DNA from: an uncultured Candidatus Peribacteria bacterium
GTDB lineage: Bacteria; Patescibacteriota; Gracilibacteria; UBA1369; GWF2-33-10
Direction: 5' to 3'
Length of the DNA stretch: 59,147 nucleotides
Assembly: GCA_964511025.1 (NCBI GenBank)
Contig: CAZEDK010000002.1
Location: 1 to 59,147, forward strand
Shown here: positions 362 to 58,626 of the stretch, in pieces
Position numbering within the stretch: the stretch's first letter is position 1
Layout of the letters: every line of letters starts with the position of its first letter
Position numbers and translations under genes: made by a program
The notes under the pieces: model-generated
The model's database searches: none
Told to the model about the DNA's origin: nothing
The model's input: only the letters and a program-made list of their open reading frames with translations

Positions 362-387
362 GTTCAACAAAATAGTATTTACGGGAT

Positions 388-8281: not shown

Positions 8282-8359
8282 TTGTTCTCCCCATTTCTAT
8301 CATCTTTTTATTTACTATAACATTTTATTCCACAAGCTATATTCTTTTGCCAGTTATAC

Positions 8360-9665: not shown

Positions 9666-9704
9666 TTAATATCATTTATTGTTTGCTTAAAATTATCAAA
9701 AAAG

Positions 9705-13351: not shown

Positions 13352-13419
13352 TGCTCAATATATCAATTTCTATTTATCTCGATAATATGAATTGAATCGA
13401 AGTCAAATAAGCATCCATT

Positions 13420-15478: not shown

Positions 15479-15532
15479 ATTCGATAGATTCTTTAGACCT
15501 TCATTTCTTAAATCTTTAGATTATATACCCTT

Positions 15533-16324: not shown

Positions 16325-16644
16325 AATCCCTTTTTTAAAAGATATTCCATCTAAAATCCTTCTGTGCTGCTAATGAATCATTCCAAAATCACTATATTTT
16401 CGGAAGTCTAAACATAATGATTTCATATATATTTAAACACTTTTCGCATAAGAGTTTCAATTTATTAGATTGATTTTACAATTTCTATAAAAATTCTTCG
16501 AAAGAAGATATTCGTTCTTCTAAACGATATAATGTTTTTGATCACAAGTTAATACCCAATGCGTAGTTCTAATGCTCTATACTGAGGAAATATAATGGTT
16601 TTTAACTATAGTGTCTACTAAAATTCATTCCATCTGGCAGTCAA

Positions 16645-22657: not shown

Positions 22658-22660
22658 TAC

Positions 22661-23386: not shown

Positions 23387-23396
23387 GCCATCGCTC

Positions 23397-27271: not shown

Positions 27272-28290
27272 TTTATTTGTACTCCTTTGGGAATCGCTAC
27301 TTTTACTTTCTTACCTATAACCTTATTTAAATCTTTTGCAGGAACCACATCATTCCCAGGACTGGGTCTCTTTACCCAGACCATTTCTGAAGTAATCTTC
27401 GTCCCTTTAGGTATGTCAACTTCTGAAACCACGCTCTCACGTGCCCATGAGACAATTTGTTGCTCTTCTGTAAATATTTTTCTCTCAGATCCCATTGCCA
27501 TATACACTGCCTTTACACCCTTTACCAATTCACCCAATTCATAGGGTTCAATTGATGAAGCATGATCCGGACCTTTTTGTAACTTATCTAAAGTAAAATG
27601 TTTTTCTATCACACATGCTCCTAACGCTACTGCACCAAGTGCAGTATATATCCCTCGAGAATGATCAGACAGTCCTATAGGAATGCTAAAAGACTCTTTG
27701 TACTTTTGTATCATTCTTAAATTTACTATATTATAAGGTGTCGGGTATGCGGAAACACAGTGAGTTAATATAAAGGGTGTTCCAATACTCTTTATAAGGT
27801 TAACTGTTTCTTCAACTTCCTTAATAACTGACATCCCAGTTGAAACAATCATTGGTTTTCCCTTGCGGGCAATGTGTTCAATAAGGGGTAAATTTGTTAA
27901 TTCTCCAGATCCTGTTTTGTAAGAATCTACACCAATGTCTTCAAGAAGTTCCACGCCGTCTCTGCTAAATGGTGTACATAAATAAAATATGCCTAGCTGT
28001 TCGCATAATTTTTTTAGTCTGATATGTTCGTCGAGGCTTAAGTTTGTACGCTCAAGTGTATCCCACAGAGGTTCTTCAAAGTTATTCGATTGAGGCGTTT
28101 CACGAAGCATTTCATTCTCCAGAACATGGATTTGAAACTTAATACAATCTGCCCCCATAGCGTGTGCAATATAAACCATCTGTTCAGCAATACGAATATC
28201 CCCTTCATGATTAATACATGCCTCAGCAATAATAAAAGGTTTATAATCCGGACCTATTGGCCTATTCTTTATTGTTACAGGTCTAATCAT
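27253..28290 (-). CDS. neuB: Nonulosonic acid synthase (NeuB family: N-acetylneuraminate, legionaminate or pseudaminate synthase)
   Basis: 345 aa. Motifs: KPFIIAEACINHEGDIRIAEQMV, CVSAYPTP, GLSDHS, and a C-terminal SAF-like domain (DIPKGTKITSEMV). Confidence 0.85.
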   Translation of the reverse strand: MIRPVTIKNRPIGPDYKPFIIAEACINHEGDIRIAEQMVYIAHAMGADCIKFQIHVLENEMLRETPQSNNFEEPLWDTLERTNLSLDEHIRLKKLCEQLGIFYLCTPFSRDGVELLEDIGVDSYKTGSGELTNLPLIEHIARKGKPMIVSTGMSVIKEVEETVNLIKSIGTPFILTHCVSAYPTPYNIVNLRMIQKYKESFSIPIGLSDHSRGIYTALGAVALGACVIEKHFTLDKLQKGPDHASSIEPYELGELVKGVKAVYMAMGSERKIFTEEQQIVSWARESVVSEVDIPKGTKITSEMVWVKRPSPGNDVVPAKDLNKVIGKKVKVAIPKGVQIKWSYME

Positions 28291-28302
28291 TATAAAAACC
28301 TA

Positions 28303-28977
28303 TTACGTGGTTTTAAGCTTCATATAAACTTCTGCAAACTCGAAATCAAAAGGAGTATTAATGTCGATAGCCTCTTCTTCCGAAACGATTACAGGATATA
28401 ATATATCTCCCAAAACTGATTTTTTCTGTCGTAAGATATTTGTTTTCGTGCCATATATCGTACTGCTTTCCTTATACAACGGTATCCTTTCTTGGCGTCT
28501 TCTGGATTGTCCAGGAAACAAAAATTCAAACTTGCCATCTATTATTTTCCCATAACAGCTCCTGGACTCTATCACCCCAATAACCGAATCAGCCTCCGTA
28601 GTTTTAAAAACTTCTACACACCTATCAATTAGTTGTGGCGTTCGAAAAGGAGACGTGGGTTCTAATGTAAGAACGATATCTGGCTCAAAACCATACATGC
28701 GCTTTAATTCATCAAGAACGTGAAGTAATGCCCATTCTGTTGGCGTTTCATCAGTTGCCAGTTCTGCAGGTCGTACAATGACTTCTGTATTAAATTCCTT
28801 GGCAACTTGAGCAATTTGTGGATGATCAGTAGAAACAACTAACTTATTTATAGATATAGACTTCTGTGCAGATTCTATTGTATATGCTATTAACGGTTTA
28901 CCGCAAAGCTCTCTAATATTTTTAAGAGGAACAGACTTAGAACCCCCGCGGGCAGGAATAACTGCTAAAACTACCAA
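28303..28977 (-). CDS. neuA: CMP-nonulosonic acid synthetase (acylneuraminate cytidylyltransferase)
   Basis: 224 aa. Motif: AVIPARGGSKSVPLKNIRELCGKPLIAYTI. Confidence 0.85.
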   Translation of the reverse strand: MVVLAVIPARGGSKSVPLKNIRELCGKPLIAYTIESAQKSISINKLVVSTDHPQIAQVAKEFNTEVIVRPAELATDETPTEWALLHVLDELKRMYGFEPDIVLTLEPTSPFRTPQLIDRCVEVFKTTEADSVIGVIESRSCYGKIIDGKFEFLFPGQSRRRQERIPLYKESSTIYGTKTNILRQKKSVLGDILYPVIVSEEEAIDINTPFDFEFAEVYMKLKTT

Positions 28978-39269: not shown

Positions 39270-40265
39270 TCAAAAATCCTGCGTGGCATATAAAATTACA
39301 TGGCTTCCCAGTTTCTCAAAGCGGAAAGGCACATGCAAAAGATCCTTTAATTTTTCTTTAATTGCCTGCTGGGATTCAGGCGGTGCAAAAAAGAGTATGA
39401 AACCGCCTCCTCCTGCTCCAAGCAATTTCCCACCCAGAGCCCCGGTGCGTAAAGCAGTTTCATAAATTGCATCAATCTCGCCATTTGTTATCAAATTGGT
39501 AATGGTCCTCTTAATCTTCCATGATTCATGAAGAAGCTTTCCAAAGTCATTTATATCATGAGCATTCCCGTTAAGGATCTCGATTGCGTCTTCTACCATC
39601 TCCATCATAGCTTTTAACTCAATTTTTTTTTCGTGGGTTTTTTTAATCTGTTCATTTGCGATATCAGATGCATTCCTGGAAAAATGCGTGAAAAATAACA
39701 TAAGATGATCCTGGAGCAAATTTAACTTTTCCTGAGTAATTGTTATAGGTTGGACATAAAAATCTTTTCCTGCTCTAAACTCAATTTTGTTAAGCCCCCC
39801 AAACGAGGCAGCCACTTGATCCTGTGAACCAACACTTTCCTTAATGAGATCTTGTTCAACATGGATTGCATCTCTGGCTAATTGCCTTTTTGTTACCATC
39901 TTACCGGTCAAGGCATATAAGGCATTTAAAAAACCAACGGTAAAAGCAGAACTCGAACCAATTCCCGATTGAGCGGGAATATCGCTTGTATGGACCATTT
40001 CAACCCCTTTTTCAACATTTAAAAACTTTAGACACTCGCGGACAGAGGGGTGCTTAATTTCATCAATACTTTTTGTCTCCTCACGAAATGAATATCGTAT
40101 GCGATAGTTATAATCAAAAAAGGGCGGAAGATATCTACAGCTAATATAGCAGTACTTATTTATGGTAGTGCTAATAACAGCACCTTCATTCTCTTTATAC
40201 CAGACTGGATAGTCAGTCCCTCCACCAAAAAATGAAATGCGAAATGGGGTTCTTGTTATAATCAT
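39270..40265 (-). CDS. hddA: GHMP-family sugar kinase, HddA-like (D-glycero-D-manno-heptose 7-phosphate kinase type)
   Basis: 331 aa. Motifs: RTPFRISFFGGGTDYP, SDIPAQSGIGSSSAF (GHMP motif II), GSQDQVAASFGG, and GAGGGGF. The substrate was not determined. Confidence 0.6.
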   Translation of the reverse strand: MIITRTPFRISFFGGGTDYPVWYKENEGAVISTTINKYCYISCRYLPPFFDYNYRIRYSFREETKSIDEIKHPSVRECLKFLNVEKGVEMVHTSDIPAQSGIGSSSAFTVGFLNALYALTGKMVTKRQLARDAIHVEQDLIKESVGSQDQVAASFGGLNKIEFRAGKDFYVQPITITQEKLNLLQDHLMLFFTHFSRNASDIANEQIKKTHEKKIELKAMMEMVEDAIEILNGNAHDINDFGKLLHESWKIKRTITNLITNGEIDAIYETALRTGALGGKLLGAGGGGFILFFAPPESQQAIKEKLKDLLHVPFRFEKLGSHVILYATQDF

Positions 40266-40288: not shown

Positions 40289-41254
40289 TTATACCTTGCG
40301 TGCTTCTCTATACCATTCCATCGTTTTTCCTATACCCTCTCGTATATCGGTTTTTGCCTTAAAACCTAAAATTTTCTCTGCCTTCTCTGTATCAATAAGT
40401 CTTACAGGAATCATCGAAGGTTTATTTGCGTCATAAATAATCTGAACATCTTTAAACCCATCAATTTCTAATGCTATCTGTAATATTTCTTTAATACTGT
40501 ATCCCTTACCATAGCCGATATTGATAGGATCGAAAGTTTCTATCTTCTCAGCAGCAAATATCATTGCATCAATAAAATCATCAATACAAATCAAGTCCCG
40601 AATATCATTGCCTGTTCCCCATACCTGAATCGGATTGTGTCTTTCAACCACTTTTCTTATTGTGGCAGCCATCATATGGGAAGTTGCAAAGTCAAATTTG
40701 TCGTAAGGTCCGTAAATATTAGACGGTCTCAGAACAACAGTCGCCATCCGATCTTTAAGCTTTTCGGAGTAAAGTTTGCAGAGAATTTCTGTATATCGCT
40801 TCATCCATCCAACACCAAAATAGGTATCATACGGATCACCATCAAATATTTCGTCTTCTTTAACTGGCCTATCTCCAGAGGGTGGATATGCAGCATTACT
40901 GCTGAGCCATATAAATTTTTTCACTTTTGCAAAGTAGGCAGCCTCTAACATCTGAGAGTTCATAATAATATTAGGTGTAACATGGACAAGCGGAGTGGAT
41001 GCTATCACCGCCGCCCCAGAAGTATTCGCTGCACACATAAATACATACTCTACGTCACTGACGACCCTCTTACAGTCTTCCATATGCAATAAATCGCATT
41101 CGACATATTCGATTCTGTCATCAAGAATAACAGGAGATTTTTTGTGAATAGTAGCTCTTATATTAGCTCCAAGTAATAATAGCCTATTGATCAAATTTAC
41201 CCCAACAAAACCTGCCCCGCCTGCTACCAGTACACTTTTATTCTTAAAAAACAT
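40289..41254 (-). CDS. Extended-SDR nucleotide-sugar epimerase/reductase (Fcl-like fold) with non-canonical active-site spacing
   Basis: 321 aa. Motifs: VLVAGGAGFVGVNL, and DTYFGVGWMKRYTE where YxxxK is expected. It is a paralogue of 45808..46824. Confidence 0.75.
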   Translation of the reverse strand: MFFKNKSVLVAGGAGFVGVNLINRLLLLGANIRATIHKKSPVILDDRIEYVECDLLHMEDCKRVVSDVEYVFMCAANTSGAAVIASTPLVHVTPNIIMNSQMLEAAYFAKVKKFIWLSSNAAYPPSGDRPVKEDEIFDGDPYDTYFGVGWMKRYTEILCKLYSEKLKDRMATVVLRPSNIYGPYDKFDFATSHMMAATIRKVVERHNPIQVWGTGNDIRDLICIDDFIDAMIFAAEKIETFDPINIGYGKGYSIKEILQIALEIDGFKDVQIIYDANKPSMIPVRLIDTEKAEKILGFKAKTDIREGIGKTMEWYREARKV

Positions 41255-42259
41255 TTACCCTGCCAAATTATTACTTGTACATTCTTTAGTAAAAACATTG
41301 TACTTTTTATCTATTACATCTTTATTTTTAAGATACCAGTTTAATGTTTCCCTTAGTCCTTCTTTTAAGGTTATTACTGGAACAAATCCAATCTTTTCAC
41401 GAGCCTTTGATATATCTGCAACCCTATATTTTATACCCGAAGGTTTTTCTTTATCCCATATCACTTTTGGAGATTTACCAGTTACTTCCAAAATCATATC
41501 AACAATTTCTTTTATTGATAAACCAATACCGCTACCAAGATTAATAGGATCACAACAGGCATATTTCTCCAATGCAAGCAACATACCTCGTGCAACATCT
41601 CTGGAAAATACAAAATCTCTTACTGCAGAACCATCACCCCAAACTACCAAAGGATCTTCTCCTTTAAGAATACGTCTGAGTAAAACAGGAATTACCAATC
41701 CAGTTCTTGGATTAAAATCATCGTATGGTCCATATGTATTCACAGGGCGTACAATAGCAATTTTGTCCCATCCATATTGTTCTTTATATGCCTCAGCTTG
41801 TAATTCACCCATTCTTTTTGCCCAACCTGCATAACTGTCGCCAGGCTGAGGGGGACCGCTCCATGCATTTTGTTCAACAAAAATTTCTGCTGGAGGATAA
41901 ACACATATACTGCTTGCAAAGAGATATCGTTCAACCCCTGCCAATCTGGCAGCTTCCATCATATTTGTGTTAATAAGTAAATAATTTACAAAAAAACTCG
42001 CCCCTTGGTTTCTGCCAATACCAATAGAACCTTTAACACCGGCAAGATGGAAAACAAAATCAATTTTTTCTACCACTTTGCGACAAAAGATACCCTCTCT
42101 CAAATCACCTTTTACAAACTCAACATTTTTGGGAATATCAATTGGTTCATCAAGGGAAACAACCTTTACATTTGCACCTGCTTCTATCAACATAGATACA
42201 AGAGGCCGTCCAATTAATCCTGTTCCACCTGTTACAAGTACTCTTTTCCCTTTGTACAA
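41255..42259 (-). CDS. Extended-SDR nucleotide-sugar epimerase/dehydratase-family protein
   Basis: 334 aa with an apparent TTG start. Motifs: VLVTGGTGLIGRPL and DSYAGWAKRMGE. The stop abuts the next gene's start with no gap. Confidence 0.75.
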   Translation of the reverse strand: MYKGKRVLVTGGTGLIGRPLVSMLIEAGANVKVVSLDEPIDIPKNVEFVKGDLREGIFCRKVVEKIDFVFHLAGVKGSIGIGRNQGASFFVNYLLINTNMMEAARLAGVERYLFASSICVYPPAEIFVEQNAWSGPPQPGDSYAGWAKRMGELQAEAYKEQYGWDKIAIVRPVNTYGPYDDFNPRTGLVIPVLLRRILKGEDPLVVWGDGSAVRDFVFSRDVARGMLLALEKYACCDPINLGSGIGLSIKEIVDMILEVTGKSPKVIWDKEKPSGIKYRVADISKAREKIGFVPVITLKEGLRETLNWYLKNKDVIDKKYNVFTKECTSNNLAG

Positions 42260-42412: not shown

Positions 42413-43744
42413 TTACTTCAAAACAAGAGGGCGCTTACGACGTTCATACTTATCGTAGGCTTCTTGCTGGTAATTTAAAAGGTCTTCATCAGATACTAGA
42501 GATAAATTAGCTGCCACACGTTGATACCAGGTATAACTTTCAAGATTTTCAGCTTCATCTTCTTTTATAATCTTACGCTCCATAACCATTTTAAATAAAG
42601 GCGTACCGGGATATGGAGTTGCAATCATGAATTTAGATTCATCCGCATCCAATTCACTCGCAAAATCAAGAGTTGCACGTATTGATTCATGAGTATCTGA
42701 AGGATGGCCAATTATATAACTGGCAAGAAATGGCATTTTTGCTTTCTTTAAAACTTTAGCTGCCATACGAAATTGTTCCTTGATTTCACCTTTCCCAATC
42801 ATACTTAATATTTTTTCGTCGCCTGACTCAACTCCAATAGCAACACAAAAGCAACCTGCTTTTTTAAGGGCATCAACTATCTCAAAATCAATACAATCAG
42901 CCCTAGCCTGTACATAAAAGCGGATATCTAATTTCCGTTCTAAAATCATTTTGCAAATCGCCAGAGTGCGTTTGTGATTAATAGTAAATGTATCATCGTA
43001 AAATTGAAATTCTCTAATCCCAAATCTATTAACTGCATTTTCAATTAAATTTACCACGTAATCGGATGAATGGAATCTGACTTTTCTCTTCCATGTAACC
43101 TCTGAAGCACAAAAATTACAATACCATGCGCATCCCCGTCCAGATAAAAGCCCAAAATGGGGACCATAAAAAAAATTAGGCTCTACATATGCGCTTAAAT
43201 TCTCTAAAAGATCCCATGCTGGCAAAGGTAAAACATCCAAATTTTTAATGAATGGGCGGACTGGATTTACTCTGACACCTTTATCATGTCGTAATATAAG
43301 ACCGGGTACACCTGAGATATCTTTACCTTTCTCTCTTAAATCTAGAACCTCCAATAGGACTTCTTCCCCTTCACCAATAATCCCGTAATCAATTGCTGGG
43401 TCTTTAAGAGCATGCTGTGGCAATCCTGTGACATGAGGACCACCCACTACCACAACAACATCTTTATTGGTGATTTTACAATGCTGTGCGATTTTAATAA
43501 CTATAGGAAAGCGTGGGGTTAAACAAGTAAATCCAATTATCTGTGGTTCTGATTTCATAATTTGTTCGGCCATATCATTAACATTGCCACCCCTAATATC
43601 AAAATCTATAATGTTAACCTCGTGCCCCTTTTCACGGACATAAGATGCCAACAAAGCGATATTGGTAGGCGTACGGTAAACTTGCTGTTTTTTCCATTCT
43701 CCAGATTTTTGCAAGTTAGGTGGTTGTACTAAAGTCACTCTCAT
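42413..43744 (-). CDS. Class B (B12-binding domain) radical SAM enzyme
   Basis: 443 aa. The N-terminal region is VTLVQPP...IALLASYVREKGH...IIGFTC...VVGGPHVT, followed by LSGRGCAWYCNFCAS (CX3CX2C). Confidence 0.85.
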   Translation of the reverse strand: MRVTLVQPPNLQKSGEWKKQQVYRTPTNIALLASYVREKGHEVNIIDFDIRGGNVNDMAEQIMKSEPQIIGFTCLTPRFPIVIKIAQHCKITNKDVVVVVGGPHVTGLPQHALKDPAIDYGIIGEGEEVLLEVLDLREKGKDISGVPGLILRHDKGVRVNPVRPFIKNLDVLPLPAWDLLENLSAYVEPNFFYGPHFGLLSGRGCAWYCNFCASEVTWKRKVRFHSSDYVVNLIENAVNRFGIREFQFYDDTFTINHKRTLAICKMILERKLDIRFYVQARADCIDFEIVDALKKAGCFCVAIGVESGDEKILSMIGKGEIKEQFRMAAKVLKKAKMPFLASYIIGHPSDTHESIRATLDFASELDADESKFMIATPYPGTPLFKMVMERKIIKEDEAENLESYTWYQRVAANLSLVSDEDLLNYQQEAYDKYERRKRPLVLK

Positions 43745-43851: not shown

Positions 43852-44364
43852 TTATACGAAATGTCCCACTTCGTCTCTTTGAGACAGAATTGGATTCTTA
43901 ATTGGCCACCAAATATTTAACTTGGGATCATTCCATTTATAGGTAAATTGCCTTGCAGGATTATAATATGAGGATTGTTTGTAATGAAAAATTGCTGTAT
44001 CGCTTAGAACCAGATGCCCATTGCCATATTGGGGAGGGACTAGCACCTGATATCTATTCCTGTCTGAAAGAACGAAAGGTTGCCATTTACCAAAATTCCC
44101 TGAATTTGTATCACAATTCACAACCACCAGATAAAACTTTCCATAAAGGCAGGAAATTAATTTCCAGGTTGTATCATCACCGTGAAGACCGCGAATAACA
44201 TTTTTCGAAGAAACAGAAATATCATCCTGAACAAATTTTATATCTATACCATTTTTCCTATACAAATCCTCATTGTATGTTTCTATATATTCTCCTCTAT
44301 GATCTTCAAATATATCTAGTTTTATCAACAACACACCCTCTAGCTTAGTCTTGGTTATTTCCAT
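43852..44364 (-). CDS. rfbC: RmlC-like cupin, NDP-4-keto-6-deoxy-sugar 3,5-epimerase
   Basis: 170 aa. Motifs: KLEGVLLIKLDIFEDHRGEYIETYN, VQDDISVSSKNVIRGLHG, VPPQYGNGHLVL. There is no rmlA, rmlB or rmlD in the window, so the substrate may be a GDP-sugar rather than a dTDP-sugar. Confidence 0.8.
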   Translation of the reverse strand: MEITKTKLEGVLLIKLDIFEDHRGEYIETYNEDLYRKNGIDIKFVQDDISVSSKNVIRGLHGDDTTWKLISCLYGKFYLVVVNCDTNSGNFGKWQPFVLSDRNRYQVLVPPQYGNGHLVLSDTAIFHYKQSSYYNPARQFTYKWNDPKLNIWWPIKNPILSQRDEVGHFV

Positions 44365-44451: not shown

Positions 44452-45777
44452 TCAGTAAGACATACATTGCTCTCTGAGATAATGCTGTAACTCTTTGATA
44501 TTATTAATAATCTCATCCCGAGAGAAATTTTTTCCCCATTTGCCGGTTTTTTCATACTCAAAAGGCAACCCAAAATGTTCTTCATCTGAAAAACGGAAGA
44601 GTAAATGTGCATGTTTGCTCCAGTCGTTATCAATGTATTTAATCCCATATTCCACAGGATTCTCAAAAATATCAGAACCAGGAACAGGGCAAAAACCTGA
44701 GATGTTGACATAATCAGGTTTTGTCTCCTCAATAAGTAATCGAGTAATATTAACTATATCGGGAGGTTCTCCTGGCAGTCCCAAAATAAGACACATCTTT
44801 ACTTTTATACCAAACGATTTACAAAGAAAAATAAACTCCTTAGCCTTATTAATTGTTTGTTTTTTATTGATGATATCTAATACTTGCTGTGATGCGCTCT
44901 CTATACCAATAGCAAGTTCAACACACCCCGTTTCCCGCGCCAGAGCTATAACCTTCTTGCTTGCGCCAATTTTCGTTTGACCTCTCCAAATCACATCTGT
45001 ACGTCCAATTGCCTCTAAAAAAGGGATGGCTACTTTACTAGACAGAGGAATGCAAATTTCATCTCTGAGGTTTATACCCTTAATACCATACTCGTTTTTA
45101 AGATATCTTATTTCTTCTTCTACCGATTTTGGACTTTTTCTCTGAATAGATGATGGTACGTTATATACGCAATACCCACACTTGAAGTCGCATCCCCGTG
45201 AAAACATAGCCGATGTACCTAAAACTCCACCATATTTTTCAAATAAAATGGTATTTACAATAGATGCTTCCGGGAGATAGTGGCGGCACGGAAAAGGATA
45301 ATCATCATACCGTCTACGTTTCCAATCATCAGTATAAATTTTCTTTAAAGAACCGTTAAGGGAATCGTTTATTATTTCTACGAAAGACTCTTCTCCAGGA
45401 CCCAGCACAATAGCATCAAAATAATTTGCACAATCTTCCGGGAAATTATCTACATGAGTTCCGCCGGCAGCATGTCTTGAGGCAGGGTACATGTTGCGAA
45501 GATATTTGGCAATAGACTGCATTTCAACTGAATCAGCAGTTTTCGCTATCCAGTAAAGGAAAACATCATATTCCGGAATACCAGAACAGACCTGTGTGAT
45601 ATTATATTTATTTCCGTTTAAGCGTACATTTCGAAGGTCAACAACATTTATACTAACTCCATTATTTTTAAAACGATTATCTATGATAGTTGTGAAATAT
45701 AATTCGTTCAACGGTTGTAATTTAAATGGGTTGGCGAAATAATGCCATGTTGGAACAATGAATCCTATTGATAACAT
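44452..45777 (-). CDS. Class B (B12-binding domain) radical SAM enzyme
   Basis: 441 aa. MFSRGCDFKCGYCVY (CX3CX2C) is preceded by a Rossmann-like domain of about 180 aa (AAGGTHVDNFPE...AIVLGPGE). Confidence 0.8.
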   Translation of the reverse strand: MLSIGFIVPTWHYFANPFKLQPLNELYFTTIIDNRFKNNGVSINVVDLRNVRLNGNKYNITQVCSGIPEYDVFLYWIAKTADSVEMQSIAKYLRNMYPASRHAAGGTHVDNFPEDCANYFDAIVLGPGEESFVEIINDSLNGSLKKIYTDDWKRRRYDDYPFPCRHYLPEASIVNTILFEKYGGVLGTSAMFSRGCDFKCGYCVYNVPSSIQRKSPKSVEEEIRYLKNEYGIKGINLRDEICIPLSSKVAIPFLEAIGRTDVIWRGQTKIGASKKVIALARETGCVELAIGIESASQQVLDIINKKQTINKAKEFIFLCKSFGIKVKMCLILGLPGEPPDIVNITRLLIEETKPDYVNISGFCPVPGSDIFENPVEYGIKYIDNDWSKHAHLLFRFSDEEHFGLPFEYEKTGKWGKNFSRDEIINNIKELQHYLREQCMSY

Positions 45778-45807
45778 ATTTATTTTATCTTTCCTGATAC
45801 CGTAAAT

Positions 45808-46824
45808 TTAAACTTTTAGATTCTCAAATTTTTTCCCATCAACTACCGGATTTTTTTTATACCATTCGATCATTTTACAAACACCTTCTTCAATCGTAGT
45901 TTTAGCTTTAAATCCAAGAATCTTTTTCGCCTTTGTACAATTAATATTTCTTTTACCAATGGCAGAAGGCTTCGAAGTGTTGTAAACTATTTGTGCATCC
46001 ATATAATCATCAAGTTCAAGAATAATCTTCAGTATTTCATTAACACTATAATCTTTACCGTAACCTATATTAAATACATCAAAACTATTAACTCTTTCTA
46101 AGGCTAGAAGACACGCATCAAGCACATCATCTGCATAAATAAAGTCCCTTCTATTATCTCCCGTTCCCCAAATTTCTAAGGGATTTTGCCTTTCAACCAC
46201 CTTTCTCACTGTGGCCGGTAAAACATGCGCTGTAGCGAAACAAAAATCTTCATACTCGCTATATATGGTAGTAGGTTTTAAAATAACAGTTGTTATAGGA
46301 TTTTTAAGTTTGGTGGCGTACATCCTGCATAGGATTTCTGTATATCTTGACATCCAGCCAACAGAAAAATATGTATCAGGTGGATCTTCGCAAAACATAT
46401 CCTCTTCCACTAATTCTTTATCTAGCACAGGATAGCCGGTTGTGCTGCTTAACCATAGAAATTTCTTTACACCAGCAAAATACGAAACCTCTAACATCTG
46501 GGCATTCATAATCATATTTTCTGTAATATGTGAAACAGGATTTCTAGCCATTACTGGCGCTGTAGATAAAATTCCTGCAAACATCAAAACATAATCAATA
46601 CCATCAACAATCTTTTTGCAGTCATCTGGGTTTCTTAGATCAGCTTGTATGTAAGAGATATTATCGGCAAAAATGTTTGGTTTCTTCTTATGGTAAACAG
46701 CTCTTACATAAATATTTGGCAGGTTTCTAAGTCTCATCAAGGCAAAGGTACCCATCTGCCCCGCCGCCCCCGTAACCAAATACCTGCCTTGGCAAATCTC
46801 AACTTCTTTTATATTAATACACAT
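45808..46824 (-). CDS. Extended-SDR-fold protein, paralogue of 40289..41254, with Ser in place of the Lys in the GWM(K/S)RY segment
   Basis: 338 aa. Motifs: YLVTGAAGQMGTF and DTYFSVGWMSRYTE. TIYSEYE sits where the paralogue has NIYGPYD. Confidence 0.7.
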   Translation of the reverse strand: MCINIKEVEICQGRYLVTGAAGQMGTFALMRLRNLPNIYVRAVYHKKKPNIFADNISYIQADLRNPDDCKKIVDGIDYVLMFAGILSTAPVMARNPVSHITENMIMNAQMLEVSYFAGVKKFLWLSSTTGYPVLDKELVEEDMFCEDPPDTYFSVGWMSRYTEILCRMYATKLKNPITTVILKPTTIYSEYEDFCFATAHVLPATVRKVVERQNPLEIWGTGDNRRDFIYADDVLDACLLALERVNSFDVFNIGYGKDYSVNEILKIILELDDYMDAQIVYNTSKPSAIGKRNINCTKAKKILGFKAKTTIEEGVCKMIEWYKKNPVVDGKKFENLKV

Positions 46825-46865
46825 ATATTAATTCAGTGTCTAATCTACTCCCAGAGTATTCTTTC

Positions 46866-47978
46866 TCATGGCCAATCCTCTCTTATATAAGCCGGTATTG
46901 GCATGTTACCATAAGCAATGACCCACGCCCAATACCTGACTCTTCCCTCGACCAGATCATAATCATATCTACCTGTTTTATCCAACGTTCGTATCAACCG
47001 GACTGGTTTTATGACTTCATCTTTCACAAGGCTTTTTGATAGTTCTACCGGACTAGGTACAAAACACAGCTTGTTCTCTATCGCTTCCTCAATAGTCTGA
47101 TAAACACGCTTGTTTCCCTGTCCCTGTGTACTAATACGTATCCTGTCTTGTAAAACACGTACTATCTGCCTTTTAAAAACCTTATCTATTTCATCAATCT
47201 CGTTTTTTTCAAGATTAAAATCAGCCGAACTGGCATTTTCTCTAAGATGTTTTAAATTTTTCGCCTTGGGGATAACAACAACTGGTGGCTTACTAATCAA
47301 CCATCTAAGAGCTATCTGGGCTGGGGTTTTACCATGTTTTTTTGCTATTTTTTCCAACAAATCTTTTCTTTCTTTGCCATCTGTAATTCTTCCCTGATCA
47401 AGAGGACTATACGCTATTATCAAGATATTATTGCGCTGGCAATAAGGAAGAATACCATCCTCAATCATGCGGTCAAACAGATTGTATTCCGTTTGGAGAG
47501 AAACCATTATCTCAGATTGAAGTGCAAATCGTGCTTCTTGGAGTTCTCTTAAATAAAAGTTGCCCACGCCAATAAACCTAACTTTTTCTTCTTTAACAAG
47601 CCGTTCTAAAGCAGCCATAGTATTCTTAAGTGGAAATGTTGGATTTGGCCAGTGTATCTGGTATAAGTCAATATAATCGGTTTGCAATCGGCGGAGACTT
47701 CCCTCTGCAGCTTTTAGTACATCCTTCTCTAAATGGTGTTCTGGAGCAATTTTTGTCCCTATAATAACCTTTTCCCTTATTCCTTTTATAGCCTTACCGA
47801 TAATCTCTTCGGAACGCCCTTTATCATAATTTTCTGCGGTATCTATAAAGTTCATTCCCAAATCAATCCCGGTACGTAAAACATCTATATGGCTCTCATC
47901 CCATGAATAATCTCCCATTCCTTGCCCAATAGCTGGCAACTTTATTGATCTGTTGCTCAGCTGCTTCATTATATTCAC
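46866..47978 (-). CDS. Aldo-keto reductase fused to a C-terminal ParB/Srx-like domain
   Basis: 370 aa. The AKR tetrad context is FIDTAENYDKGRSEE, IGTKI and LYQIHWPN. The C-terminal extension of about 95 aa, ...VELSKSLVKDEVIKPVRLIRTLDKTGRYDYDLVEGRVRYWAWVIAYGNMPIPAYIRE, matches the ParB N-terminal/sulfiredoxin-fold pattern (P(I/V)xV...Y.L(I/V)xGxxRxxA...G...IPAxV). Confidence 0.7.
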   Translation of the reverse strand: MNIMKQLSNRSIKLPAIGQGMGDYSWDESHIDVLRTGIDLGMNFIDTAENYDKGRSEEIIGKAIKGIREKVIIGTKIAPEHHLEKDVLKAAEGSLRRLQTDYIDLYQIHWPNPTFPLKNTMAALERLVKEEKVRFIGVGNFYLRELQEARFALQSEIMVSLQTEYNLFDRMIEDGILPYCQRNNILIIAYSPLDQGRITDGKERKDLLEKIAKKHGKTPAQIALRWLISKPPVVVIPKAKNLKHLRENASSADFNLEKNEIDEIDKVFKRQIVRVLQDRIRISTQGQGNKRVYQTIEEAIENKLCFVPSPVELSKSLVKDEVIKPVRLIRTLDKTGRYDYDLVEGRVRYWAWVIAYGNMPIPAYIREDWP

Positions 47979-48049
47979 ATCAGTTTGCTCAAATAAGAGA
48001 GTTAGGGAATTTCACCATAATATAACGCTAAAATTAACTTTTATTAGCG

Positions 48050-49093
48050 CTAAAATGGTCCTTTAAATCTATTTTCATGACTGTAAAACTGCTCACCCGA
48101 AAGGTCTGTCGGCTTCAAATCCAGCATATTTTCTATTTCTCTTATAATAGTCACTGCATTAGGATAAAATTTATTTTCCAAACACCTCACAGTAGGACAT
48201 GGAGTCGGAGCAAAACCAATTCTTCGTACTGGGATTTTTAACTTACCAAAACACTTTTCTGAAACTCTCGCTGAAACCTCCGCACTAAATCCACAATGCA
48301 GCCAATCATTATCAGCCACGATACACCGTCCTGTTTTATTAACTGATTCGATGATAAGCTCATCATTAAAAGGCGCTATCGTCCTGGGATCAACTATTTC
48401 AACGCTTACACCTCTTCTACCTAAAATCTCTGCTGCTTTAACTGCCTCCACATTCATCCATGAAACAGCTACGATAGTTACATCCTTACCTTCACGCAAA
48501 ATATTTGCTTCTCCCATTGGAATGGTAAAAGGTTCTTTTGGAACCTCATTTTCTTGCCAATACAACCACCTATGCTCAATAAAAATTACAGGATTATCAT
48601 CTCTTATTGCAGACATAAGTAACCCTTTGGCATCTTTAGGAGTTGTTGGTAAAACAACTTTTAATCCAGGAATATGAGCAAAAACAGAATGCATACTTTT
48701 ACTGTGATGAAAAGACTGTCCCCATCCTCTGCCAATAACAGCCCTTATCACCAAGGGAACATTTAATTTCCCTGCCGCTGAATACCTATAACTAGATACG
48801 ATGTTGGCAATCTGATTCATTGCCAAGAGCAAAAAATCCACACGAATATGAATATTTACCGGCCTCATTCCATTAATAGCGGCCCCCAATCCAAACCCAA
48901 CCATTGCTTCTTCAGAAATTGGAGTCTCAAAGCACCTTTCGGGTCCAAATTTTTCTAATAACCCTTTTGTACATCCAAATATTCTTTTGTGATCCGTAAT
49001 CCCACCTATTCCATATACAAAAATAGTTGGATCCCTTTCCATCTCTTGAAACATAGCTTCATTCAATGCATCACAATAACTTATCTTTCTCAT
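48050..49093 (-). CDS. ThDP-dependent 2-oxo acid dehydrogenase E1 component, beta subunit-like
   Basis: 347 aa. Motifs: RCFETPISEEAMVGFGLGAAINGMRPV, SFHHSKS, and a C-terminal transketolase-C-like domain (DVTIVAVSWM...VEIVDPRTIAPF). Confidence 0.85.
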   Translation of the reverse strand: MRKISYCDALNEAMFQEMERDPTIFVYGIGGITDHKRIFGCTKGLLEKFGPERCFETPISEEAMVGFGLGAAINGMRPVNIHIRVDFLLLAMNQIANIVSSYRYSAAGKLNVPLVIRAVIGRGWGQSFHHSKSMHSVFAHIPGLKVVLPTTPKDAKGLLMSAIRDDNPVIFIEHRWLYWQENEVPKEPFTIPMGEANILREGKDVTIVAVSWMNVEAVKAAEILGRRGVSVEIVDPRTIAPFNDELIIESVNKTGRCIVADNDWLHCGFSAEVSARVSEKCFGKLKIPVRRIGFAPTPCPTVRCLENKFYPNAVTIIREIENMLDLKPTDLSGEQFYSHENRFKGPF

Positions 49094-50082
49094 ACATATA
49101 CATCCTCATACAATTCAGATTCGTCAGCAAAAGGCGCCTTTTTAGCTAAAACAATACTATTATTAATTTGATTAGCAATTTCTATTTCTACTTTCTGAAT
49201 TTCTTTTTCATTACAACCTTTTTCTATTAATTTTTTGCGTTGTAAATCTACAGGATCCACCTTCTGCCACTTCATAAATTCCTCTTTGGAACGATACCCA
49301 CAATCAAAATCTTCGTTAACTCCAACGTGTTCCAAATATCTGTAATATTTTAAATAAAGGAAAGCTGGTCTTTGTGCGTTTTTACTTACTTCTATCGCAT
49401 TACAAGTTAACTCATAGACAATCTCTACATCTGTAGTTTCTGAACTAAAAACATTACAATTGAATTTGGCAACTATATCACAAATGGAATTATAACCATG
49501 TCTGACAGAAGGTGGGTAATGAACCGCAAAGCCATTATCCTCACAAACAAACAAAACGGGTATATTCATAAGGCAGGCAAAGTTTAAACTCTCCCAAAAA
49601 ACACCTTCGTCAATGGCACCGTCTCCAAAAAACACAGCTGCCATCTTATTATTCTTATTTTGTTTATTTGAAAAAGCGGTACCAACAGCAATTGGAATGG
49701 TACCCGCTACAATCGCTGAAGTGCCTAAAAAACCATTTTCTGGCGCTGATAAATGCATTGAACCGCCCTTCCCTTTTGCAAGGCCGGTTTTTTTCCCGTA
49801 CATTTCAGCAAAAAATTTATCTGTTTCTCCCGTTTTAGCTAAATAGATTGCATGACTACGATATGAACCGAAGATTTGACCTTGCTCTCCGAGGGCATGA
49901 CAAACTCCTGCTGCAATCGCTTCTTCTCCAACAGACATATGCATAGGTGTCTTCATATCATTTTCATGATAATAAATACGAATTTTTTCTTCCGCCTTTC
50001 TAATCAAATACACCTTTTTGTAAAGTTCGATGTTTAATTCAAACCATTTATTGCCAAATTCAGTCATTCGTTCTCCAACCAA
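49090..50082 (-). CDS. ThDP-dependent 2-oxo acid dehydrogenase E1 component, alpha subunit-like
   Basis: 330 aa. Motifs: HMSVGEEAIAAGV, YRSHA, and the ThDP motif FFGDGAIDEGVFWESLNFA...VCEDNGFA. A 4-nt overlap couples it to the beta subunit gene. Confidence 0.85.
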   Translation of the reverse strand: MVGERMTEFGNKWFELNIELYKKVYLIRKAEEKIRIYYHENDMKTPMHMSVGEEAIAAGVCHALGEQGQIFGSYRSHAIYLAKTGETDKFFAEMYGKKTGLAKGKGGSMHLSAPENGFLGTSAIVAGTIPIAVGTAFSNKQNKNNKMAAVFFGDGAIDEGVFWESLNFACLMNIPVLFVCEDNGFAVHYPPSVRHGYNSICDIVAKFNCNVFSSETTDVEIVYELTCNAIEVSKNAQRPAFLYLKYYRYLEHVGVNEDFDCGYRSKEEFMKWQKVDPVDLQRKKLIEKGCNEKEIQKVEIEIANQINNSIVLAKKAPFADESELYEDVYV

Positions 50083-50097
50083 AATTTTTATGTCGGT

Positions 50098-51090
50098 TTA
50101 TTTTACAACTGTTAGGGCCTTCCACTCACATCGTTTTAATTCTTCTCTCCAAAAGGACAACATATCACGTAATGTCCTTTCCAATGGAATATTCGGTTCC
50201 CATCCAGTTTCATCTCTGAACTTGTCTATACAGGGTATCTGTAAGGTAACGTCTGAAGGCCGCAGGAGCCGGGGATCGACCCTGATCTCAAACTTTGTTT
50301 TGGAAAAAGATAGCAATATTTCCAATGCCTCACCAATAGTTGTAGTACGGTTTCCCCCTATATTATATACTTCACCCGGCTTACATCTATTCACTAAAAT
50401 CCAGTACGCCCTAACAGCATCTCTCACATCACAAAAAGTTCGCACTGATTTTAAATTCCCCACCTGTATGACGGGTTCTGTTAATCCCAATTCTCCTGCT
50501 GCTGCTTGCTTGGCAAAAAATGACATTGCAAAGACATCTCCTCTTCGGGGACCGGTGTGGGTAAACATCCTAGTACGAATGGTTTTTACATCGTACGAAA
50601 GCCAATATTGTAATGCAACCATGTCCTCGCCTACTTTACTGACTGCGTAAGGAGAAGCGGGTCTGAAAGGGCATGTCTCTTTAATTGGCACGTCTGTTTC
50701 AGTTACCTGTCCATAAACCTCTGATGATGAACATATATGAATAACTGGATTAATTTCTACAATTCTAACCGCCTCGAGTAAATTTGTTGTACCAATCACA
50801 TTTGACCAAAGAGTTTGTATTGGTGAATTGAAACTCGTTAATACATAACTTTGAGCTGCTAGATGAAAAATAATATCTGGTTTAATCTCCTTGAAATGCC
50901 GAATTAACGCGCTCAAATCACAAAGATCTGCATCAAGGAGTGTAACTTTATTATAAATTTTCTCTAGATTGTCTCTTGGACTTCTCCATCTGCACAGCCC
51001 ATATATTTCATGTCCTTCGTTCAAATTAAGAATATATTCTGCAAGATGGCTTCCGACAAAACCTGTTATACCTGTAATCAATAATTTCAT
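50098..51090 (-). CDS. Gmd/Rmd-family extended SDR (GDP-4-keto-6-deoxy-mannose reductase or NDP-sugar dehydratase-like)
   Basis: 330 aa. Motifs: MKLLITGITGFVGSHLAEY, SSSEVYG, and the canonical YAVSK. Confidence 0.65.
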   Translation of the reverse strand: MKLLITGITGFVGSHLAEYILNLNEGHEIYGLCRWRSPRDNLEKIYNKVTLLDADLCDLSALIRHFKEIKPDIIFHLAAQSYVLTSFNSPIQTLWSNVIGTTNLLEAVRIVEINPVIHICSSSEVYGQVTETDVPIKETCPFRPASPYAVSKVGEDMVALQYWLSYDVKTIRTRMFTHTGPRRGDVFAMSFFAKQAAAGELGLTEPVIQVGNLKSVRTFCDVRDAVRAYWILVNRCKPGEVYNIGGNRTTTIGEALEILLSFSKTKFEIRVDPRLLRPSDVTLQIPCIDKFRDETGWEPNIPLERTLRDMLSFWREELKRCEWKALTVVK

Positions 51091-51128
51091 AATTTACTCA
51101 ACCCAGAAGAACTTCACGAAAAGTTTTC

Positions 51129-52415
51129 TTACGAAATAAAATAATCATGCGAATATTGAAAATTTCTTACAATACTCTTCATATCATCTTCCATTTCTTG
51201 TATTGCGACCTGGGGTATAAAATTTTTTTCATAGGTCATACGCGCATTATATTCTATTTTCCTTCTCAATTGCTCATCCTTGATAACTTTGATTATAAGT
51301 TCAGGTAATTCTCGAATGTCATTTGCTATAAGGGCATTTTCCATATTCATTAATTCAGGCCGCGAGTTTTTTTCAAAAATTGTTGTAACTATACAACATC
51401 CATAAGCCAATCCCACAATAATCCTCGCTCTAGAACTTAATTGAACGGGCGTTGGAACAAGTAATAAATCGGCTGATAAAAAGTCCTCGCTAACATTATC
51501 AACATAACCACGTAATATTATCGATGGCTTATTTAAATTTTCTTTAAATTCTGGCGGGATAGTAACGTTCCCAATTAAATGTATCTCGAAAGTATCCTTC
51601 CCAAGTTTTTCTTCGAGATGTGGTAATATATGCTTAGCAAGCACTTTATAATGTAAATAGGTAGCAGTACCTACTGCTCCTACCATAATAATTTTAGGTT
51701 TTTTATTACTGGCCTGGGCTTTTTCCTTGAGATCCTGCCAATTCTCGCCTACCGGATCTATACACGGCGCTTTATAGTATTTACAATCCGAAGCTCCCAA
51801 CCTTTTGAAACTCTCAACGTAATCAAGAGCAACTTGCCCATACGCTTGACATGCTGAGTAAGCTTTTACTATTTGTTTTAACACGCTGCGAGAATTTAAA
51901 ATATTTATAAAATACCTTATGTACTCAGAGACATTAGGAGGAACCTTTCTTTTACATCGCAACATAGTAAAAAGCCACATGAATGGATTTTCACACAATG
52001 GAGATATCCTCGGAACTGTTTTGATACCTTGCGTAACACAAATTGCCGCCAACCCGAATGCAACAATGATATGCGGGCGTAATTGCTCTACGTATTTTTC
52101 AATCACATTTCTGATTTCTTTTCTGTAAGATACGGTATGATAATAATCTTCAATTTTTGGTTTAAGTATTCTTAATAGTTTTGACCGCCTGAGACGATGC
52201 GGCGCTACATCGAAGAGCGAAATGACCGTAACTCCTAACGAAGACAAGATTTTAATATGTTCCTCCCTATCATCGGGTTCCCAGCTCGGAGGATTTACTA
52301 TTGCAGTTACTTTGTGACCGACACTCAAAAAATACTGGATCAATGTCCAGCCATGAATACACGAACCACTTTTCCCATTAAATGGAATATCCTCGCCAAT
52401 ATAAAAAATGTGCAC
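51129..52415 (-). CDS. GT-B fold glycosyltransferase (GT4-like, divergent)
   Basis: 428 aa. The N-terminus IFYIGEDIPFNGKSGSCIHGWTLIQYFLSVGHKV is typical of GT4. The C-terminal half is divergent, with no clean EX7E motif seen. Confidence 0.5.
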   Translation of the reverse strand: MHIFYIGEDIPFNGKSGSCIHGWTLIQYFLSVGHKVTAIVNPPSWEPDDREEHIKILSSLGVTVISLFDVAPHRLRRSKLLRILKPKIEDYYHTVSYRKEIRNVIEKYVEQLRPHIIVAFGLAAICVTQGIKTVPRISPLCENPFMWLFTMLRCKRKVPPNVSEYIRYFINILNSRSVLKQIVKAYSACQAYGQVALDYVESFKRLGASDCKYYKAPCIDPVGENWQDLKEKAQASNKKPKIIMVGAVGTATYLHYKVLAKHILPHLEEKLGKDTFEIHLIGNVTIPPEFKENLNKPSIILRGYVDNVSEDFLSADLLLVPTPVQLSSRARIIVGLAYGCCIVTTIFEKNSRPELMNMENALIANDIRELPELIIKVIKDEQLRRKIEYNARMTYEKNFIPQVAIQEMEDDMKSIVRNFQYSHDYFIS

Positions 52416-57495: not shown

Positions 57496-58626
57496 CTACT
57501 CCTTACTATCCACAGTCTCCAGCATCCAATCAATTCCTTTTTGTTTCAGTATCTTTTCACTTTCGCCAATCGGATTTAAGCCAACTAGCTTCATATCTGA
57601 ATCAACCATGATTTTGACAAGTTCTTGAAAAGTAACTCTTGACATCCATCCTAATTTATTTTGTGCCTTTGTAATATCAGCACATAAAAAATCTACTTCT
57701 GTAGGTCTAAAGTATCTTGGATCTATTTCAACGATAACTTCTCCGGTTTTTAAAGAAAAGGTTGAGGCTGAGGAGCAAATGATGCCTTTTTCTTTTGCCC
57801 CCCTTTCTTTCCATTCTAATTCAACACCAACGTGTTTGAAGGCGAGTTCTACGAATTCTCTCACAGAATGACTTTCACCGGTACCTATTACGTAATCATC
57901 TGGACTATCCTGTTGGAGCATTAGCCATTGACATACCACATATTCAGGCGCAAAACCCCAATCTCTTTTGGCTTCCAAGTTGCCAAGGTATAGCTTCTTC
58001 TGTTTTCCGGCAACAATGTTTGCTACTGCCCTTGTTATTTTTCTTGTTACAAAAGTCTCACCTCTCCTTGGTGATTCATGATTAAAGAGGATTCCATTAC
58101 AAGCAAACATATTGTATCCATCTCTGTAGTTAACAGTCATCCAGTAGGCATAGACCTTGGCTGCAGCGTAAGGACTCCTCGGCCTAAAATGTGTCTCCTC
58201 ATTCTGAGGAGCCTGAGCATCTCCAAACATTTCACTGCTGCTGGCTTGATAAAATTTGGTTTTAATGCCACTCCTTCTCACGGCTTCTAACAACCTCGTA
58301 GTTCCCAGACCGCTGATATCCCCGGTAAATTCTGGCATATCAAAACTAACACGCACATGGCTCTGTGCTGCTAAATGGTAAACTTCATCTGGTTGGATAT
58401 TATATATGAGATTAGTTATCTGGCTCGAATCAGAAAGGTCTCCATAATGAAGAAAAAGTCGTACATTGGGGTTATGTGGGTCACGATAAAGGTGATCAAT
58501 CCTGTCGGTGTTAAAGGTACTGGAACGACGAATAAGACCGTGAACTTCGTAACCCTTTGATAGGAGAAATTCTGCCAGATAGGAACCGTCCTGCCCTGTA
58601 ATTCCTGTTATGAGTGCTCTTTTCAT
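57496..58626 (-). CDS. gmd: GDP-mannose 4,6-dehydratase
   Basis: 376 aa. Motifs: [79 protein letters not shown]. Confidence 0.95.

Follow-up and report, generated by a model that had tools for sequence, protein, structure and literature searches.

Two-subunit E1-type enzymes that branch sugars are known from a handful of actinomycete antibiotic pathways, by genetic evidence in the cited papers. AviB1/AviB2 of avilamycin, TxnB3/TxnB4 of trioxacarcin, KstD7/KstD8 of kosinostatin, and EvdU5/EvdS3 of everninomicin, all of them actinomycete secondary-metabolite enzymes, are pairs that resemble the E1 component of pyruvate dehydrogenase (PDH) and have no E2 partner, and they are assigned the introduction of a pyruvate-derived two-carbon (C2) branch at C-4 of a nucleoside diphosphate (NDP)-4-keto sugar (PMC4753412, PMC5659172, PMC10338323). 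The transfer of a pyruvate-derived C2 unit is likewise assigned to Plm8/Plm9 of paulomycin (PMC4802897) and to TxnB3/TxnB4 (PMC5659172), and EvdU5/EvdS3 were still "hypothesized" in 2023 (PMC10338323). YerE of Yersinia pseudotuberculosis, as cited in PMC4753412, acts in yersiniose A formation by the thiamine diphosphate (ThDP)-dependent transfer of a C2 unit from pyruvate onto the NDP-4-keto-3,6-dideoxyhexose of the O-antigen, and E1 components can perform carboligation without E2, as reported for the E1 component of Escherichia coli PDH (PMC7696235). Here, we analyzed a pair of E1 alpha- and E1 beta-like genes in a 59,147-nucleotide (nt) stretch of DNA from an uncultured Candidatus Peribacteria bacterium (contig CAZEDK010000002.1), hereafter called the window, for which an initial annotation had proposed a role in forming a C2 branch on a sugar. 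The best explanation of the results as a whole, which we regard as reasonably probable by analogy with the described pairs, is that the pair belongs to the Pau11/Pau12 (AviB1/AviB2) family and acts as a ThDP-dependent carboligase that needs no E2 and would put a C2 branch on a GDP-4-keto sugar.

The two genes are located in a single minus-strand run together with a gene for a 4,6-dehydratase-like short-chain dehydrogenase/reductase (SDR) and one for an aldo-keto reductase (AKR) fusion, as follows (aa, amino acids).

50098..51090, minus strand: NDP-sugar 4,6-dehydratase, 330 aa (Pfam GDP_Man_Dehyd, 250 bits)

49090..50067, minus strand: E1 alpha-like ThDP subunit, probably 325 aa (Pfam E1_dh, E 7.8e-51)

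48050..49093, minus strand: E1 beta-like subunit, 347 aa (Transket_pyr and Transketolase_C)

46866..47978, minus strand: AKR fusion, 370 aa (Aldo_ket_red at aa 24-267, E 1.4e-66)

Pfam annotation, which covered every open reading frame (ORF) of at least 120 aa in the window, found the four genes where the initial annotation had placed them and with the expected domains. The TGA stop of the alpha gene and the start of the beta gene share ATGA, in agreement with the 4-nt overlap noted before. The E1 alpha gene itself, given earlier as 49090..50082, was also verified, but its start was not: ATG at 50067 is more likely than TTG at 50082, because GGAG is present 6 nt upstream and the resulting length of 325 aa equals that of the closest homologue (P0001). 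The 4,6-dehydratase gene ends 15-30 nt upstream of E1 alpha.

The pair was found to be an orphan throughout the genome, as had been suggested for the window. None of the window ORFs of the above size has a 2-oxoacid_dh, Biotin_lipoyl, or Pyr_redox domain, so that the reported absence of E2 and E3 genes from the 59 kb holds. In the whole assembly (1.56 Mb in 82 contigs, 97.3% complete, 32.6% G+C), there were 0 matches to the E2 catalytic domain (PF00198) and 0 matches to the lipoyl domain (Biotin_lipoyl, PF00364), the latter being matched in 14 of 14 control genomes. The EF-Tu encoded in the assembly shares 82-86% identity with proteins of named Candidatus Peregrinibacteria, which places the organism in the candidate phyla radiation (CPR). 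One flavoprotein disulfide reductase (Pyr_redox_dim) is encoded on another contig (C30), unlinked to the pair, and the only other E1_dh-like matches in the genome were a normal transketolase (on C15) and a split transketolase-like gene of the window. Since there is neither an E2 nor a lipoyl domain, the reductive acylation of a lipoyl-E2 is unavailable to the pair, which is thus not part of a dehydrogenase complex. The E2 domain is likewise absent from 23 of 50 other genomes that carry related genes in the conserved arrangement described below.

Phylogenetic placement relative to AviB1/AviB2-type and true dehydrogenase E1 enzymes, which had been proposed as a check, put both subunits with Pau11/Pau12 (= Plm8/Plm9) of paulomycin and apart from E2-linked pairs. 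Trees were built with IQ-TREE (LG+C20+F+G4, support as ultrafast bootstrap/SH-aLRT) and included seven reference pairs from annotated plasmids, each with E2 or lipoyl genes next to it (AcoAB of Burkholderia, PdhAB of Priestia and Methylocystis, the branched-chain 2-oxo acid dehydrogenase (BCKDH) pair of Rhizobium etli, and pairs of Rhodococcus, Phaeobacter, and Thermus), to which we added E2-less pairs from Azospirillum lipoferum p6, Solidesulfovibrio magneticus pDMC1, and two Streptomyces plasmids. Pau12 of S. albidoflavus, so named in UniRef, was recovered by protein search from Streptomyces sequence, and its contig was recognizable as the paulomycin cluster, with genes for an acyltransferase, an AKR, E1 alpha, Pau12, a SARP regulator, a P450, a glycosyltransferase, a hexose 2,3-dehydratase, and chorismate-utilizing enzymes. 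In the beta tree, all 39 rows without an E2 partner, among them those of the window and Pau12, formed one clade (100/100), with all seven E2- or lipoyl-linked rows outside; the clade comprised the window sequence, its relatives in the conserved arrangement, second pairs of some loci, the Azospirillum and S. magneticus sequences, and the Pau12 type. The alpha tree gave the same split (99/99), with Pau11 in the E2-less clade.

Two of the more distant clade members come from culturable carriers and have sugar contexts. The S. magneticus RS-1 pair (within the pDMC1 locus 4057..20930) is accompanied by radical S-adenosylmethionine (SAM), NUDIX, kinase, Fcl-like, aminotransferase, SDR, nucleotidyltransferase, and SIS genes, and the A. 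lipoferum 4B pair (within the p6 locus 7524..12372) by oxidoreductase and aminotransferase genes, with sugar genes nearby. In addition, four loci (L004, L033, L048, and L054) have two E1 alpha/beta pairs apiece, and their extra pairs represent older, separate E2-less branches; one of these extra pairs groups with the Azospirillum plasmid pair.

The subunit sequences retain the catalytic residues of E1 enzymes. The ThDP/Mg motif of the alpha subunit (GDG...N) is intact, with GDG and N178 invariant, and it reads E-D-N rather than E-N-N. The active-site His of the alpha subunit is kept within YRYLEH and aligns with His263 of human PDHA1, the residue before the phosphorylated Ser of its HGHS motif. 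Glu61 and His130 of the beta subunit are kept in all aligned rows of both kinds of E1. The catalytic machinery is thus intact, and the enzyme should be active. The loss of catalytic residues was rejected as a discriminator, because the Glu and His are present in E2-linked and E2-less E1s alike, and E-D-N was rejected as a marker of the E2-less clade, because Pau11 has E-N-N, so that it marks only the subclade to which the window pair belongs. On the other hand, two simple derived features of the beta subunit separate the two kinds of E1. An H82-x-R84 motif is shared with Pau12, with R84 being found in 64 of 65 sequences of the conserved arrangement and in every other E2-less member, where E2-linked E1 beta subunits have Phe or Thr at position 84. 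A C-terminal extension with F-x-G-P-F/Y, which ends as FKGPF in the window, is present in all E2-less members but that of S. magneticus and absent from E2-linked E1 beta subunits. The AcoA/AcoB type and other heterotetrameric 2-oxo acid dehydrogenase E1s have the same fold, ThDP motif, and catalytic Glu and His, but they form a distinct clade without these two signatures and hand their acyl group on to a lipoyl-E2 whose gene adjoins theirs, whereas the source genome of the window has neither an E2 nor a lipoyl domain.

The genomic setting of the pair was found to be widely conserved. Relatives of E1 beta with 60-81% identity were present in 67 genome loci that span at least 17 phyla (16 named bacterial phyla and Thermoplasmatota), and a cassette was defined by tblastn of all window proteins against these loci together with clustering of the locus ORFs. 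The recurring gene order is 4,6-dehydratase, E1 alpha, E1 beta, methyltransferase-like protein, classical SDR, Fcl-like SDR, RmlC-like epimerase, Fcl-like SDR, GHMP kinase, and nucleotidyltransferase. A dehydratase homologue of at least 45% identity was found in 43 loci, and most related loci have the dehydratase as the gene immediately before E1 alpha. The E1 pair thus belongs to the invariant part of a nucleotide-sugar cassette that has spread horizontally, with its place directly after the 4,6-dehydratase; horizontal transfer of the cassette is suggested by the E1 beta tree, in which sequences from different phyla are thoroughly mixed. The initial annotation had considered a branched-chain sugar in a surface glycan to be unusual, but a surface-glycan setting recurs in this family across the 67 loci and is not unusual for it. 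In the window, the run continues downstream of the AKR gene with the following genes.

45808..46824, minus strand: Fcl-like extended SDR (Epimerase/GDP_Man_Dehyd), forming a module with the next gene

44452..45777, minus strand: B12-binding radical SAM enzyme, candidate C-methylase (Radical_SAM and a weak B12-binding match)

43852..44364, minus strand: RmlC-fold 3,5-(or 3-)epimerase (dTDP_sugar_isom, E 1.8e-49)

42413..43744, minus strand: second B12-binding radical SAM enzyme (B12-binding and Radical_SAM), a variable cassette insert

41255..42259 and 40289..41254, minus strand: two abutting Fcl-like SDRs (Pfam Epimerase), the keto-sugar reductases/epimerases of the cassette

39270..40265, minus strand: HddA-like GHMP kinase of the heptose-7-phosphate kinase type (GHMP_kinases_N/C), the last conserved cassette gene within the window

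These genes, together with a gmd gene upstream (57496..58626; 561 bits against TIGR01472, cut-off 415) that is followed by an Fcl-like gene, bear out the neighborhood described before (gmd upstream, and SDRs, an RmlC-like epimerase, and B12-binding radical SAM enzymes downstream). From 51090 down to 39270, neighboring genes are 0-153 nt apart, as would be expected of a single transcription unit. Homologues of at least 45% identity were found in 32 related loci for the epimerase (median identity of matches, 68%), in 37-38 for the two abutting Fcl-like SDRs, and in 34 for the kinase (median, 60%). The second B12-binding radical SAM enzyme had a close homologue in only one related locus.

The enzymes around the pair suggest that its acceptor would more likely be GDP-6-deoxy-4-keto-heptose than GDP-4-keto-6-deoxymannose, because the dehydratase, the epimerase, and the kinase and nucleotidyltransferase that travel with them are of the GDP-heptose type and gmd is outside the conserved cassette. 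The best solved relative of the dehydratase is the GDP-heptose 4,6-dehydratase of Campylobacter jejuni (7US5, 277 bits), ahead of Rmd (2PK3, 223 bits) and Gmd (at most 143 bits), indicating that 50098..51090 probably encodes a GDP-D-glycero-D-manno-heptose 4,6-dehydratase; its earlier label as an Rmd/Gmd-like SDR can thus be made more specific. Among solved structures, the C. jejuni GDP-4-keto-heptose epimerases 8DB5 and 7M14 score best for the epimerase (131 bits), by a small margin over RmlC (122 bits), and the two abutting Fcl-like SDRs come closest to GDP-fucose synthases, among which are the Campylobacter heptose enzymes 7M13 and 7ANC. The cassette kinase and nucleotidyltransferase have HddA and HddC as their best NCBIfam matches, both below the cut-offs (162 bits against a cut-off of 600 for the window kinase). 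Of 50 cassette genomes, 49 have a gmhA homologue, among them CPR genomes of 0.6-0.9 Mb and two archaea, compared with 4 of 14 controls, and GmhA-like and GmhB-like genes are inside 8 and 6 loci, respectively. The upstream Gmd was rejected as a partner of the pair, because a close gmd was found in only one related locus and the adjacent dehydratase is of the heptose type, and the earlier proposal of GDP-4-keto-6-deoxymannose made by Gmd as the acceptor is thus probably not correct. The Campylobacter pathways to which the capsular GDP-heptose enzymes of C. jejuni belong (DdahA/B/C and MlghB/C type, with 7US5 as 4,6-dehydratase, 8DB5 and 7M14 as C3/C5 epimerases, and 7M13 and 7ANC as C4 reductases) have no ThDP enzyme and yield unbranched 6-deoxyheptoses.

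The barrel of the AKR fusion extends from aa 1 to about 268 and is followed by an extra domain at aa about 270-370 (46866..47180), which had no Pfam match. The full-length model (pLDDT 89) has a barrel closest to Tm1743, and a Foldseek search with the full length saw the barrel alone. When the C-terminal domain was modeled alone (pLDDT 84), its top Foldseek matches, at a TM of about 0.6 and E of about 3e-4, were all structures of the ParB/sulfiredoxin superfamily (ParB, including ParB-CDP, KorB, Noc, sulfiredoxin, and SbnI). The initial annotation had recognized a fusion, and what stands beyond the barrel is now predicted to be a ParB/sulfiredoxin-fold domain. The fusion is conserved in 12 proteins, counting that of the window, with about 100 extra residues in all 12 and an invariant G-R-x-R-Y-W-A-W motif in the C-terminal domain, which resembles the arginine patch of ParB. 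To our knowledge, members of the ParB/sulfiredoxin fold all bind nucleotides, and the domain could therefore hold the GDP moiety of the substrate. In the window, the AKR gene replaces the methyltransferase-like gene and the classical SDR gene that usually come after E1 beta, and the same AKR type was found in 11 related loci. Among the 44 loci with enough downstream sequence, 20 had only the classical SDR, 8 only the AKR, and 2 both; the two enzymes thus alternate at that position, as a tendency rather than as proof. Elsewhere, the AKR fusion gene is usually followed by a weakly TylF/Methyltransf_24-like gene, which is absent in the window.

The partnership of an AKR with an E1-type pair has experimental precedent, in support of what had been suggested for the window, since in vitro work showed the AKR Pau7 to be a reductase of the acetyl branch in paulomycose (PMC4753412). 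The paulomycin system of Streptomyces paulus and S. albidoflavus is among the closest described counterparts in other respects as well. Its Pau11/Pau12 is likewise an E2-less E1 pair in a deoxysugar pathway, it falls in the same clade as the window pair in both trees, Pau12 shares the H-x-R motif and the F-x-G-P-F tail, and its cluster contains an AKR, as does the window run. However, the paulomycin enzymes act on a dTDP-2,6-dideoxyhexose for an antibiotic, whereas the partners in the window are of the GDP-heptose type in a surface-glycan locus. Moreover, Pau7 has no ParB/sulfiredoxin-fold domain, its assay used the glycosylated antibiotic as substrate instead of an NDP-sugar, and the window AKR is only 33% identical to it, over the barrel only, so that the two are analogous, not orthologous. 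TxnB3/TxnB4, with 327 and 345 aa, are in the size class of the window pair (PMC5659172). AviB1/AviB2 and their kin are linked to the window pair through the published homology between Pau11/Pau12 and AviB1/AviB2, not through their own sequences. The E1-like pair of aldgamycin (AlmDI/AlmDII) is placed with them on the word of the initial annotation, and one paper on aldgamycin contained no description of it. YerE has the chemistry that is proposed for the window pair, but it is a single-chain flavoprotein of the acetolactate-synthase type and belongs to a different ThDP superfamily. No account of an E1 pair in a heptose or O-antigen cluster was found in the literature that was searched. Compared with the known kind, the window pair thus differs in its surface-glycan setting across phyla, including CPR bacteria and archaea, in its probable heptose acceptor, and in its reductase of the AKR-ParB/sulfiredoxin type.

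In the mechanism that we propose for an E2-independent carboligase, which draws on established ThDP chemistry and on the genetic literature for Plm8/Plm9, TxnB3/TxnB4, and AviB1/AviB2, the pair would decarboxylate pyruvate to form hydroxyethyl-ThDP, and the hydroxyethyl carbanion would add to the C-4 carbonyl of a GDP-6-deoxy-4-keto sugar supplied by the neighboring dehydratase, most likely a heptose, with a hexose being possible in the source genome. The product would be a 4-C-acetyl branched sugar, whose acetyl branch the downstream AKR would reduce to a 1-hydroxyethyl group, while its ParB/sulfiredoxin-fold domain may hold the nucleotide of the substrate. The epimerase, the Fcl-like SDRs, and the B12-binding radical SAM enzymes would then tailor the sugar, and glycosyltransferases would place it in a surface glycan.

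Several points weigh against this proposal. The cited literature gives no in vitro reaction for any sugar-branching E1-type enzyme, the evidence being genetic, and the chemistry ascribed to the window pair is an analogy. The identities to Pau11 (36%, alpha) and Pau12 (45%, beta, over the full length) are not above those to some E2-linked E1s (up to 47%); since the level of identity does not discriminate, the membership in the clade rests on the trees and the signatures. A branch at C-4 would take away the 4-keto group, on which both the RmlC-like epimerase and the Fcl-like reductases depend, and the order of steps may therefore differ or more than one product may be made. Not all members of the E2-less clade may act on sugars: the pair of S. 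griseofuscus pSGRIFU1 (within the locus 10989..24975), which is of the Pau12 type and 73% identical to Pau12, has no adjoining sugar genes and instead adjoins genes for a 1103-aa condensation-domain protein, an acyl carrier protein (ACP), a phosphopantetheinyl transferase (PPTase), a thioesterase, and ketosynthases (KS), and some members may thus feed a carrier-protein pathway. Finally, the heptose route is incomplete in the assembly, which makes the acceptor in the source genome uncertain. Of the four genes of the Campylobacter-type activation set (GmhA/HddA/GmhB/HddC), which travels with the cassette in other genomes, the source assembly has the HddA-like kinase only; gmhA, gmhB, and hddC-like genes were searched for with tblastn and Pfam SIS_2 and were not found in it, so that the assembly shows no complete GDP-heptose pathway. 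Its nucleotidyltransferases are RmlA-, ManC-, GalU-, and GlmU-like only. The window is one complete contig, and its end falls inside the glycan cluster, within a radical SAM gene (1..370), so that sequence outside the assembly may carry the missing genes. Another possibility is that the source organism feeds the cassette with a GDP-hexose; genes of the ManC and Gmd types are present.

Among the rival explanations, the one that survives best, which we nevertheless consider unlikely, is an extension of the sugar chain before activation. According to it, the pair would join the C2 unit to a free or phosphorylated sugar aldehyde in the manner of DXS or transketolase, and the resulting 1-deoxy-ketose or higher-carbon sugar would then be activated by the HddA-like kinase and a nucleotidyltransferase. 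The cassette always contains the GHMP kinase and often the nucleotidyltransferase; a split transketolase-like pair is present in about 20 related loci and in the window, and a YerE-like enzyme in 8; and the source genome has no gmhA, so that the substrate of its kinase might arise by another route. However, no neighbor of the pair is as tight and as constant as the NDP-sugar 4,6-dehydratase just upstream, the gmhA gene of nearly all cassette genomes provides the kinase with its usual substrate, and the clade includes Pau11/Pau12, for which the proposed acceptor is an NDP-4-keto sugar. A supply of acyl donors, in which the pair would decarboxylate a 2-oxo acid and pass an acyl or hydroxyalkyl unit to an ACP, coenzyme A, or another thiol for O- or N-acylation of the glycan, as happens with E1-like enzymes of some natural-product pathways, appears improbable. 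The Pau12-type pair of S. griseofuscus, with its condensation-domain, ACP, PPTase, and KS neighbors, and the fused E1-like RenH within the plasmid-borne renieramycin cluster speak for such a role, but the genes conserved with the cassette include none for an ACP, a condensation protein, an E2-like protein, or an acyltransferase, nor is there one near the window pair, the genome has no lipoyl domain, and RenH was the most distant sequence of the first tree. Even less credence can be given to the decarboxylation of a 2-ulosonic acid sugar of the 3-deoxy-D-manno-octulosonic (Kdo) or nonulosonic type, which would yield either an aldehyde sugar of shorter chain or a sugar donor bound to ThDP. E1 enzymes do use 2-oxo acids, and the window has genes for NeuB, NeuC, and a CMP-transferase (26108..28977), but this module is 20 kb from the pair and is not conserved with it, NeuB and NeuC matches within 10 kb of the pair were each found in only one related locus and were weak (23-32% identity), and the constant partners, namely dehydratase, epimerase, and reductase genes, are of the 6-deoxy-sugar type. 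That the pair is an ordinary catabolic E1 for pyruvate, acetoin, or branched-chain substrates, located by chance in a glycan cluster, is scarcely credible and is refuted as far as sequence evidence reaches: generic database names, best NCBIfam matches to PDH E1 alpha and beta, and PDH and BCKDH E1s as the closest solved structures would favor it, but both scores are under the cut-offs (alpha, 259.6 against 393.85 for TIGR03182; beta, 302.7 against 321 for NF006667), the genome has no E2 or lipoyl domain, both subunits fall outside the E2-linked group with 99-100% support, and at least 17 phyla share the gene order with sugar enzymes.

The distribution of the pair has several consequences. The surface-glycan cassette has passed between members of at least 17 phyla, among them organisms whose genomes measure 0.6-1.6 Mb and have lost pyruvate dehydrogenase altogether, and it points to branched sugars derived from heptose as a likely new class in the envelopes of microbes. 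The name "pyruvate/acetoin dehydrogenase E1" is a systematic misannotation of a large gene family, which can distort metabolic reconstructions of uncultured lineages, and R84 and the C-terminal F-x-G-P-F/Y tail of the beta subunit offer simple markers by which the two kinds of E1 can be told apart. The enzymes are small and soluble, and are thus on offer for in vitro study of the formation of carbon-carbon bonds on nucleotide sugars. A wider interpretation, whose parts we put forward jointly as a tentative and rather doubtful possibility, is that the cassette makes GDP-activated, C-branched higher sugars of at least nine carbons, derived from 6-deoxy-4-keto-heptose with an acetyl or hydroxyethyl branch, as an undescribed class; that many loci would add further carbons through split transketolase-like and YerE-like enzymes and B12-binding radical SAM C-methylases; that such sugars would commonly occur in the envelopes of CPR bacteria, Omnitrophota, Planctomycetota, Nitrospirota, and some archaea; and that the AKR-ParB/sulfiredoxin fusion would represent a new mode of nucleotide-sugar recognition.

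Other features of the locus were also observed. The glycan locus is very large, with at least seven B12-binding radical SAM genes as well as SPASM radical SAM genes in the window, which further holds two AsnB-like genes, many glycosyltransferase genes, a sulfotransferase gene, and a flippase gene, in addition to the NeuB, NeuC, and CMP-transferase module. The G+C content is about 37% at 46001..52000, compared with 32.6% genome-wide, which could fit a foreign origin of the cassette, with coding constraints as an alternative. The module of an SDR and a B12-binding radical SAM enzyme (44452..46824) has counterparts with 50-57% identity in a locus of Omnitrophota (L004) and one of Planctomycetia (L015), which suggests a portable unit for keto-sugar C-methylation or a similar reaction. 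A YerE-like gene is not adjacent to the window pair; an acetolactate-synthase/YerE-like ThDP enzyme of about 565 aa is encoded in the eight related loci mentioned above (L013, L023, L034, L044, L053, L061, L063, and L064), a few genes downstream of the E1 pair and usually just ahead of split transketolase-like genes, so that three classes of ThDP enzyme are encoded in those loci. In the window, the split transketolase-like pair is at 8360..9665 and is flanked by SPASM radical SAM genes; its second half is of 165 aa with Transket_pyr only, and among the homologues that accompany the E1 pair in related loci, the second half is sometimes fused to a methyltransferase-like domain.

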